From Schmidtea polychroa (lineage: Eukaryota): a stretch of DNA of 64,000 nucleotides. Position numbers and translations under genes: made by a program. Shown piece by piece: positions 31,401-34,400 of this stretch. The notes beneath the pieces were generated by a model, which ran no database searches, was not told the origin of the DNA, and saw nothing but the letters and a program-made list of their open reading frames with translations. The stretch covers positions 22,446,001 through 22,510,000 of the forward strand of contig CM097885.1 of NCBI GenBank assembly GCA_044892525.1. Reading direction: 5' to 3'. Each line of letters begins with the position of its first letter. Position 1 is the first letter of the stretch.

Positions 31401-34400
31401 ATATTTGGTGACAGAAGAATGCCTAATTTTATTCTGATAACATTTCAAAGTGAAGCACAATATAATGGATCATATACTGCGTCCAGCTCAATTTTCAAAA
31501 ACTTTGGTGTTACATCATTGACTTTGTCGAAAAATACTGATTATAGAGAAACATATATTCAAGATTTCGAGAATGACAATTACTGTGCGACATATATGCA
31601 GAGTATTGTTAGAAATCTGGGTTATTTAGATAAAAATTTGAATTGCGGAATAACACTAGAAGATTTTAAAAGCAAATACCCATTTTTTACATTTGTTTTA
31701 GCCCCTGATTTTGATTTAAATCAAAGTCAATTACCACAAAACGGGAATTTACGACTGGATATAAAGTTTGCCAAAGCTATTACTGAACCAGTACATGTTA
31801 TAATATATGGAGTATTTGAAAATGAAGTTCAAATTACTGCAAATAGAACCGTGTTGGTATAAATGTATACAGAAACAAAAAAAGTTATCATGGAGTAAGT
31901 TGTTTTTTTATACTCTGGATTTATTTAAATAGTTCTGTTCAGGTCAATAAAATCGGAAAACAGATATTGGGAAATGAATTTGTTGGAGTTTTTCCTCTTG
32001 ATAAAATTCCATATTTGAGCAATAATCAAGCAATAATCGTCAATACTCAATCGTCTCATCTTGGTGGAGAACATTGGATAGCTATATATGTGAAACCTGG
32101 TAATATATTCGTGTTCGATCCGATGGGTTTCTATTACCCAGCTTTGTTGATATCAAAACTACAAACAATGGGAAAACCTATTGTGTATAATAAAACTATG
32201 TTTCAAAATCCTTTGACCCAAACATGCGGTCAACATTGTTTAGCTTGGTTATTGTACAAAAAATTTGATGTTTAAAGAAAAATGTTTAATAAATTTGATG
32301 TTTAATAAATGTATCCTTTCCTTTGTTGTTGTGTTATTATTAATATTATTAATATTATTATTATTATTATTATTATTATTATTATTATTATTATTATTGT
32401 GAAAAATATTATTATTTTTAATTAATTTTATTATTATTCTAATAAATATTATTATTTGTAACATAAAGACTGCCTTTGCCTGAGGCATGCACAGTGCAAG
32501 TTAACAAAGGCATGACTAACAAAGGCAGTCACATGTAATTCTGACTGATTTACATTACATACATGCATGCGTGTGATTGGTTGAGAGAGTAAAATATTCA
32601 ATGTATATGTGTGTGTGTCTATATTCTCATTGGCTGGGACAGGAAAATATTCATTCTCTTTATAAACATTGACAAATCTAAAATTTGTCACAATTATTTT
32701 GAAATTTTGAAAATCAATTCGAAAATCTATTTGAAATCAATGGAAACCAACAAGAATCGAGTATTGAGAAGTCTTTTGACTAACGGTAAATTATTATTAT
32801 TTTTATTCGATTTTTATTATATTTTATTTTAGAACCATTCGACTGGTACGAAGTTACAGAAAACGATGCCATTTTAAATGTGGAAAATATATTTGGTAAA
32901 TTTAATATTTTAATTTTTATTAAATTAATTTGCATTACAGAAAATGTTAATGAAAATAGTGATGAAGATATTATTTTTCTTGGACAATCGGATGCCCCAG
33001 TTAATGATGTTGGGCACAACTATGTTTTCAAAGAAAAAAGTAAATTTATTTTAATTTTTATTAAATTAATTTGCATTACAGAAAATGTTAATGAAAATAG
33101 TGATGAAGATATTATTTTTCTTGGACAATCGGATGCCCCAGTTAATGATGTTGGGCAAACCAAGGTTATCAAAGAAAAAAGTAAATTTATTTACTTTAGT
33201 AATTTATTTTTAAAAATTTTATTTTTTAGCGTTTAATTTCAATGTCGACATCGATGAAGAAGAAATTATGGAAAATGTAACAATTGATGATAATGCCCTC
33301 AGTTCGGTTGCTGAAGACTCAGATTCCATCGATGAAGATTTTATGGAAAATGTAACAATTGATGATAATACCCTCAGTTCGGTTGCTGAAGACTCAGATT
33401 CCGATATGGAATCAGAATGTAAGATTTATTTATTTTATATATATTTTTGATATTTAAATTTCGTAATCACTTTTTTAAATATTTTGATGAAAATTTCTTT
33501 AATTTTTGATGAAAATTTCTTAAATATTTTGATGAACCTTATGATCAAACTTATGAAGAAAATGAATTATGAATTTATGCTCAAATTATGATGATTTATG
33601 CCCAAATTATGATGATTTATGCCCAAATTATGAAGAAAATGATTTATGCCCAAATTATGATGATTTATGATTTATGCCCAAATTATGATGATTTATGCCC
33701 AAATTATGATGATTTATGCCCAAATTATGAAGAAAATGATTTATGCCCAAATTATGATGATTTATGCCCAAATTATGACGAAAATTTATGAACAAAATGA
33801 AAATGATTTATGACCAAAATTATGACCAAAATTATGATGAAAATATGACGAAAATTATGAAGAAAATACTATGTTTTTTGAAATATAATCAAAGTATTTA
33901 AAAAAGTGATTACAAAATTATAGTTATAAAATAAATCCTTGTAGTTTGCAATGTGCATCTACAATAGTTAAAATAATAATAATAATAATAATAATAATAA
34001 TAATAATAATAATATTAATAATATTAATAATAATAATGTAGTCTACAGTAAGCATGTAGCTACATAGTAGTCTGCAGTGGGCATGCAGCTACTTCTCTTC
34101 AATATAATAATAATAATAATATTAATAATATTAATAATAATAATGTAGTCTACAGTAAGCATGTAGCTACATAGTAGTCTGCAGTGGGCATGCAGCTACT
34201 TCTCTTCAATATAATAATAATAATAATAATAATAATAATAATAATAATAATAATAATATTAATCTGACTCGTCTAATATTCATATAATAATCTGACCTAT
34301 CTACTAAAATCTCTCTAATATTCTCTCGAATATATTAACCTATTTTCTATAAGGATTTATCATCATTTGTTATATAGTTCATTTGAATTAAATAACAAAT

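Follow-up and report, generated by a model that had tools for sequence, protein, structure and literature searches.

A hairpin family on both sides of the pPolB gene

A family of short, bulged hairpins is present in two intergenic clusters (33939–34200 and 38753–38957) of a 64,000-nucleotide stretch of Schmidtea polychroa DNA (assembly GCA_044892525.1, contig CM097885.1, positions 22,446,001 to 22,510,000 of the forward strand; hereafter the window, in which positions are counted from its first letter). The clusters bracket the pPolB gene within a 19.5-kb Maverick/Polinton element. A preliminary description of this DNA had placed the family on both sides of pPolB in a Maverick, and the gene and repeat evidence agrees. 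The two arms of the hairpins are coupled. By analogy with the homologous regions (hrs) of baculoviruses, the hairpins may be a lineage-specific array of DNA palindromes that is read by a protein; this reading is preferred here, tentatively, as quite possible rather than probable.

The family comprises nine full copies, one truncated copy and one decayed copy. The upstream cluster opens with the decayed copy, D (33939–33964, + strand), which retains the outer stem, carries a 4-nt deletion in its 3′ arm and is scored by the covariance model at an E-value of 1.9e-4. Hairpin A1 (34036–34065, +), with A:T at the variable inner pair and the loop GTAAGCA, is followed directly by hairpin B1 (34066–34093, +), with G:C at that pair and the loop GTGGGCA. 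Exact duplicates of both, A2 (34143–34172, +, inside a 107-bp repeat) and B2 (34173–34200, +), complete the cluster; the duplication of the A and B pair is exact, with no differences over 65 nt. The downstream cluster is an array of five type C hairpins (38753–38932, +) spaced by 39, 38, 37 and 36 nt, with a T run after every unit, and a truncated sixth unit, C6 (38939–38957, +; covariance-model E 3.7e-5), whose loop has been deleted between two copies of TGCAG. All three unit types, and the A/B duplication, were thus located where they had been reported. The loop GTGGGCA given for the downstream array holds for C2–C5; in C1 the loop is GTGAGCA.

A search with the 24-nt pattern returned nine matches, against 0.00 expected in shuffles. 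All nine full copies share the + orientation and carry the bulged T in their 5′ arm, five of the seven loop positions are invariant and the other two differ only among purines. Consistent with the reported retention of the 7-nt loop GTRRGCA and the single T bulge, a flipped loop or a lost bulge occurs in none of the nine. The 24-nt core is identical between B and C2–C5, which are 4.6 kb apart, and the flanks of these units are alike only in AT-rich or (AAT)n content. Long (AAT)n tracts adjoin both clusters: one lies beside the upstream cluster (33972–34037, with further tracts at 34104–34144 and 34211–34263) and another (38964–39154) is situated 3′ of the downstream cluster and 5′ of the promoter region of a RING gene. 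The hairpin core is GC-richer than the intergenic DNA around it.

The hairpin arms change in concert

Four distinct units, rather than all nine copies, were used to count pairing and covariation. Among them 43 of 44 cells are paired, the single unpaired cell being terminal, and three of the 11 stem pairs are altered on both sides, with none altered on one side only. Every stem change exchanges one Watson–Crick pair for a different one, and there is no G–U cell. If substitutions were independent, the probability of obtaining three or more matched pairs from seven changes would be 3e-5 to 3e-4; under a more conservative null, in which the pair in TA runs is dropped, two pairs from five changes would arise with a probability of 6e-4 to 3e-3. 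Because independent substitution gives such low values, the hairpin arms are coupled. Covariation as high as that observed was reached in 5 of 500 shuffles, a figure that by the nature of the method is not a probability. Since most of the nine copies stem from recent tandem duplication, the depth of the covariation is three events in three to four lineages.

The claim that the stem pairs alter in a compensatory way is therefore borne out, by three double changes among four units. The further claim, of a selected RNA or single-stranded DNA structure or a dyad protein-binding site, stands as far as the arms changing in concert; selection does not follow from this, since template switching could suffice. 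Template switching during replication makes compensatory changes in one event and without selection (PMC8794818, part of the text). The whole family could then be a neutral by-product without a reader: in a repeat-prone, strand-displacing element, template switching would have kept a chance GC-rich quasi-palindrome symmetric, and slippage and short ectopic copying would have raised its copy number. According to the same partial source, template switching can form stems as well as mend them, with changes that look compensatory, and its hairpins acquire double stem substitutions without intermediates, as the Maverick units do. The element also holds many exact recent duplications (107-, 141-, 75-, 36- and 21-bp units), C6 is truncated, D is decayed, and the motif was not seen in 75 loci of pPolB relatives. 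In contrast to the template-switch hairpins of PMC8794818, as far as the available part describes them, no perfected stem or inverted loop is found among the nine Maverick copies, and the bulge is retained. A switch that set outer pairs and left the bulge in place, or that set an inner pair without removing the bulge, would need the ends of its tract to fall within a 2–3-nt window each time. The near-invariance of the loop, with purines alone at its two variable positions, and the retention of a core GC-richer than its surroundings at two sites also speak against neutrality, which is accordingly regarded as possible and, on balance, doubtful.

Folding of the units and their position relative to genes

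Each + strand unit, taken alone, folds into a stem of 5–6 pairs, a 1-nt 5′ bulge, a stem of 5 pairs and a loop of 7 nt, with z-scores of −2.4 to −3.5 for RNA and −3.6 to −4.6 for DNA. In context, the A and B hairpins hold their own register with P of about 0.9 as RNA and above 0.9 as DNA. The units of array C pair with their neighbours instead, a second fold in context being nested, and the own-register P falls to 0.01–0.06 as RNA and 0.11–0.29 as DNA. Display of the loops of array C in RNA would therefore need co-transcriptional trapping, since their own register is disfavoured at equilibrium.

The upstream cluster stops 148 nt short of the predicted TATA word of pPolB and 199 nt short of its ATG. 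The downstream cluster begins 106 nt past the AATAAA that is the putative poly(A) signal of pPolB (38647–38652, +) and lies ahead of the RING promoter region. A1, with which the full copies of the upstream cluster begin, is likewise 106 nt past an AATAAA (33930–33935, +), the putative poly(A) signal of an upstream acidic, intron-containing gene. As the upstream cluster precedes the predicted TATA word and ATG and the downstream cluster follows an AATAAA, neither would be expected within a predicted mature mRNA. This location, together with the register shift of array C, disfavours the part of the earlier claim that would give the hairpins a role in a mature RNA.

A nascent read-through RNA is a different matter. 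Here the hairpin would present a loop resembling a 5′ splice site (GURRGCAU) that recruits the U1 small nuclear ribonucleoprotein (snRNP) approximately 100–270 nt past a poly(A) signal, or would act as a pause site or terminator. All copies are in the sense orientation, the 106-nt distance recurs in both clusters, the A and B hairpins form readily, and the loop begins exactly at GT. The loops were compared with the consensus of the 5′ end of U1. The A loop with its next base matches the intron-side complement at seven of eight positions, C1 at six plus one wobble, and B and C2–C5 at five plus two wobbles; the two purine-only loop positions are those at which either A or G can pair with U1. On the exon side the match is 0/3, which tells against a donor, and most predicted donors of the Maverick itself likewise have no exon-side matches. 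Recruitment of U1 would tune cleavage or termination between tandem genes in the manner of the major splice donor of HIV-1, which suppresses cleavage from 195 nt downstream of its poly(A) signal (PMC3694450, in part), and a comparable model has been proposed for nematode operons (PMC2777434, in part). A donor-like sense word 100–270 nt past AATAAA is common to the Maverick and, in the portions of these two papers available, to the HIV-1/foamy virus donor and the nematode model. Unlike the HIV-1/foamy virus donor, the Maverick word occurs in multiple copies within hairpin loops, has its U1 match on the intron side only and is known from sequence alone.

Several observations weaken this RNA reading. 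The match to U1 was found post hoc among many motifs tried, and GTGGG, the commonest loop start (six of nine copies), is the weakest donor. Array C could show its loops only by kinetic folding. The coincidence of the 106-nt gaps is diluted by the local frequency of AATAAA (seven in 2,369 intergenic nt) and by a microsatellite within one of the two gaps, and no G–U cell was seen in the stems. Such a nascent-RNA role is considered rather unlikely, and its most specific form, in which tandem RNA hairpins display decoy 5′ splice sites, load U1 snRNP past poly(A) signals and so control pPolB read-through, would be improbable.

Hairpins after genes are also known from related replicons that have a viral RNA polymerase, as the hairpin polyadenylation signals of mimiviruses and virophages. 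The stem-loops at the 3′ ends of the yeast pGKL virus-like elements (VLEs), as far as the accessible text of PMC6211774 goes, similarly follow genes in a pPolB-type replicon, and in the Maverick U runs follow the type C units. A hairpin with a T run is found in five of the nine copies, all of type C (the downstream cluster was scanned, and A and B were judged by eye), which lends the RNA reading some support. Unlike the yeast elements, for which that text gives a viral RNA polymerase and unconserved stems, the Maverick has introns, AATAAA signals, a TBP-like gene and a conserved loop, and no RNA polymerase family was matched among the 15 open reading frames (ORFs) of the element scanned against Pfam. 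An intrinsic terminator of the VLE type was rejected on the restriction of the T run to these five copies and on the lack of an RNA polymerase match in the 15 ORFs.

In an iron-responsive element a loop of the form CAGWGN caps a 5-bp upper stem, and there is a C bulge. This identity was rejected: the word CAGTGN occurs in B and C with none of the five upper-stem pairs, and the base preceding the stem is A; the A unit does not have the word, and no Rfam match to the iron-responsive element was obtained at E-values up to 5 in 22000–42000. The same Rfam search gave 25 matches of any kind, all below the gathering score and none at the clusters.

A proposed protein-read palindrome array of the hr type

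Baculovirus hrs consist of clustered 24–30-bp imperfect palindromes within AT-rich DNA; they function as enhancers and origins and are bound by IE1 in the extended or the cruciform form (PMC6669502, in part). An hr holds three to eight units, each with a 24-bp imperfect palindrome, and enhances expression 3–13-fold (PMC4535591, in part). The Maverick has arrays of 24–30-bp imperfect palindromes at AT-rich intergenic positions, in its case two. It thus resembles the hrs described in the available parts of both papers (30-bp units in AcMNPV, 24-bp units in SpltNPVII) in forming palindrome clusters at more than one AT-rich intergenic site, in varying in copy number and in lying near replication or early genes. 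An hr-like reading is supported by the size of the units, their clustering, the AT-rich flanks, the plasticity of copy number and the location outside the predicted mRNAs, and also by the persistence of bulge and loop through three double changes.

In such a scheme the clusters would be DNA control sites of the pPolB and RING genes beside them, acting as an enhancer and possibly also as an auxiliary signal in replication. The palindrome would fold transiently on the + strand, either when this strand is displaced in protein-primed replication or when the (AAT)n DNA melts, and the fold, the bulged T and the loop would jointly be recognised by a protein. Template switching or selection would hold the arms matched, and slippage would alter the copy number. 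That the Maverick amplifies other motif arrays is clear from 74 matches to TGACTCA and 70 to TCAAGGTCA inside the element, against 8 and 2 in the 44.5 kb outside it. The interiors of the terminal inverted repeats (TIRs; 22278–23050 and 40388–41587) are arrays of these TGACTCA and TCAAGGTCA words, the array in the right TIR being the longer; we take the words to resemble AP-1 and NR5A/ERR sites.

A number of points count against this interpretation. Covariation of the arms is not required by a double-stranded dyad site, which makes it necessary to postulate a further step, folding or template switching. A bulged hairpin with a loop of 7 nt makes a poor cruciform, and protein-primed replication is expected to begin at the termini rather than internally. 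The enhancer, origin and protein-binding roles of the clusters would be carried over by analogy. Scanning of the 15 ORFs gave no IE1-like family. Copy D is decayed and C6 truncated, the uniform sense orientation suits RNA equally well, and the motif is found in none of the 75 pPolB-relative loci, which is a weak test with short flanks. Membership of the baculovirus hr family itself was rejected, since the element is a Maverick without an IE1-like Pfam match, and the likeness is one of analogy only. Indeed, the Maverick differs from hrs in lineage, in being a linear pPolB replicon, in having only two clusters and in its 7-nt loop and one-sided bulge, and the AgMNPV hr words printed in the accessible part of PMC6669502 show no similarity to its units.

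Other known protein-binding or structured sites were considered. A p53-family response element consists of two RRRCWWGYYY half-sites. No unit contains an exact half-site, and the two matches within the Maverick both fall inside pPolB, so this candidate was dropped. Resemblances to Smad, CSL, Pax, GCM, EBNA1, TAR and REP sequences, judged by eye, were likewise set aside, as none fits all variants.

Distribution outside the element and in relatives

The family could also be a host-wide tiny repeat, or mini miniature inverted-repeat transposable element (MITE), inserted twice in the Maverick. The core has TA on both sides, as an insertion might; the flanks, however, are inverted complements and not direct duplications, and at 20–24 bp the unit is, to our knowledge, too short for a known MITE. 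No clear hairpin copy occurs in the 44.5 kb of host flank, against 11 copies inside a 5-kb part of the Maverick. The best flank match (57763–57789; 16 bits, E 0.025) is weak, its likeness to type C being confined to the stem foot; it is situated approximately 1.3 kb beyond the decayed fragment of a second Maverick. A host repeat is a very unlikely explanation. Of the proposed check that the motif might be a host-wide repeat unrelated to Mavericks, the flank of 44.5 kb has thus been covered, without a clear copy. Short words from the unit are not clearly enriched elsewhere: GTRRGCAT has seven matches outside the units against 3.8 expected, and TRRGCRTG six against 6.6.

Among metagenomic sequences, at least 487 pPolB relatives were confirmed in 600 stretches, and the best 80 of these gave 75 loci with 28–61% identity. 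The covariance model passed in none of the 75, which answers in part the proposal to run such a model across Maverick copies, the loci being pPolB relatives from metagenomes with mostly short flanks: of the 27 loci with at least 40% identity, 12 have 450 nt of downstream sequence, and of the seven with a located start, three have 363 nt of upstream sequence. The stem-foot pattern was also absent from all 75, five had a single match to the hairpin pattern with three mismatches, and a sequence-free scan for bulged hairpins returned 20 scattered matches and no array. Viral contigs contained no match to two hairpin patterns and no confirmed relative of pPolB or of the capsid protein. The only match in bacterial and archaeal genomes, in Marinobacter, was discarded; it has a broken stem pair, and about 1.1 such matches are expected by chance. 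The window stretch or part of it is present in 20 of 24 listed sequencing runs, with no RNA run among them. The hairpin array is lineage-restricted on this thin sampling, and selection on it is not established.

Two relatives, L004 and L009, have unrelated arrays of their own near pPolB, as does L026 by eye. In L004 a 14-bp, ATGCAT-rich array of 25 copies (317–670) lies upstream of a gene that precedes pPolB, and L009 (1404–2181) has three 21-bp arrays with AAGGCAT downstream of pPolB. Directly upstream of the hairpins, the window has an array of 21-bp period (33565–33825) with eight copies of TGGGCAT, the loop word of B and C, on the minus strand. The two-helical-turn period that it has in common with L009 may be due to chance. 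Two further strong intergenic hairpins with 11-bp stems are unrelated to the family; one (32467–32532, z −3.6) contains two GGCATG words and the other (23153–23197, z −5.0) has a mirror in the right TIR.

The Maverick element and its genes

The host element spans 22172–41693 (19,522 bp), has ends of the form AGTAG…CTACT and is flanked by a 6-bp target-site duplication, TGTGTG (22166–22171 and 41694–41699). Its TIR arms (22172 to approximately 23416 and 39921–41693) are 96–99% complementary in their longest segments. Pfam matches in the scanned ORFs include a Pox_A32-type ATPase (E 4e-7), the cysteine protease Peptidase_C5 (E 2e-6) and, below the cut-off, an rve integrase (E 1e-5). Maverick polymerase homologues bear PF03175, a match that the window's own protein does not have. 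A predicted structure of a 406-aa protein (pLDDT, a per-residue model score, of 86) resembles the capsids of iridovirus, PBCV-1, mavirus and Sputnik (best E 9e-16), and on this model the protein is identified as the double jelly-roll major capsid protein. The element therefore combines TIRs and a 6-bp target-site duplication with a pPolB, rve, ATPase and protease gene set and a double jelly-roll capsid. In the part of PMC8502044 available, adintovirus/Maverick elements have these features in common with it: pPolB, rve integrase, A32-type ATPase, C5 protease, double jelly-roll capsid, TIRs and a 6-bp target-site duplication.

The pPolB gene (34399–38512, +) is predicted to consist of a short first exon, a Zn-finger N-terminal part and the main ORF. 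The frame of the N-terminal Zn-finger (34462–34785) differs from that of the main ORF (34775–38512), so that either this copy of pPolB or its assembly has a break in the frame. The start is most likely ATG 34399, because the Cys/His-rich frame after it matches the N-terminus of the pPolB homologue P0139 (E 5e-11); this Cys/His Zn-finger-like extension (34399–34785) is common to pPolB homologues. The predicted core promoter (34348–34383, +) would comprise a TATA-like word at −51 and an Inr-like TCATT at −20 from the ATG, the latter 31 nt after the former. In all seven relatives examined a TATA-like word lies 30–88 nt upstream of the start of the Zn-finger-type N-terminus, which in one of them, L022, is found 3′ of the polymerase match.

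A bracketing of pPolB by like sites could mark it as an exchangeable or excisable module, the hairpins being single-strand recombination or processing sites of the attC or IS608 kind, with, for example, an endonuclease VII-like domain of pPolB as their reader. The direct orientation on both sides of one gene, the fixed extrahelical T and the purely Watson–Crick changes would suit such sites. Unit B begins with AGTAG and ends with CTACT, the same five bases as the Maverick termini; this does not hold for A, C or D. A weak Endonuclease_7 match is present in pPolB (E 0.001, below the cut-off), and PF02945 is precomputed on many homologues. At an integron attC site the foot of the stem bears R-box cores, and a tyrosine recombinase acts on it. 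Such core words are not at the stem feet of the units, as judged by eye, and neither a tyrosine recombinase nor an HUH family was matched in the 15 ORFs; an integron attC site was rejected on these grounds. A cassette site, moreover, has no need of tandem arrays, and a recombination role of any kind appears very unlikely.

Elsewhere in the element, a TBP-like gene lies at 26400–26837 (−; Pfam E 1e-15). Possible anti-apoptotic cargo comprises an ORF with a weak likeness to Bcl-2 (23981–24292, E 0.028) and a RING ORF of the IAP type (39602–39928, E 6e-10). Within the integrase ORF a (TAT)23 tract (28566–28635), through which the reading frame stays open, is probably an expanded small intron. The orphan ORF at 25076–25486 (−; 136 aa) has one homologue, at 99%. 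As a candidate hairpin reader or single-stranded DNA-binding protein (SSB) it was rejected: it has no Atlas match, and its structural model (pLDDT 42) is unusable. Its C-terminal strands may resemble those of OB-fold SSBs.

The Maverick apparently sits in a hAT-like transposase gene (approximately 21700–22171 and 41694–42650), with a DUF659 match (E 2e-23) on the right side; the left-side continuation was judged from translations. A second, diverged Maverick is represented by a decayed fragment (54300–56450) with integrase pieces, minor and major capsid pieces and a 235-bp duplication.

Significance

As far as the literature search reached, little has been published on the internal cis-signals of Mavericks/Polintons. 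The titles and abstract openings of the papers found on Mavericks, Polintons and adintoviruses contain no description of internal hairpin arrays, the word 'hairpin' does not occur in the available part of PMC8502044, and the accessible portions of papers on polinton-like viruses mention only terminal hairpins or palindromes. The hairpin array thus apparently has not been described in Mavericks before. Should it prove neutral, it would be a clear example from nature in which template switching mimics covariation, and a caution for RNA-structure scans. If U1-decoy hairpins were to prove true, they would be a structured, multiplied 'telescripting' switch for which no published counterpart was found. 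In any case, a 30-nt motif with natural compensatory variants beside a polymerase promoter offers a testable handle on the switching of a replication gene.

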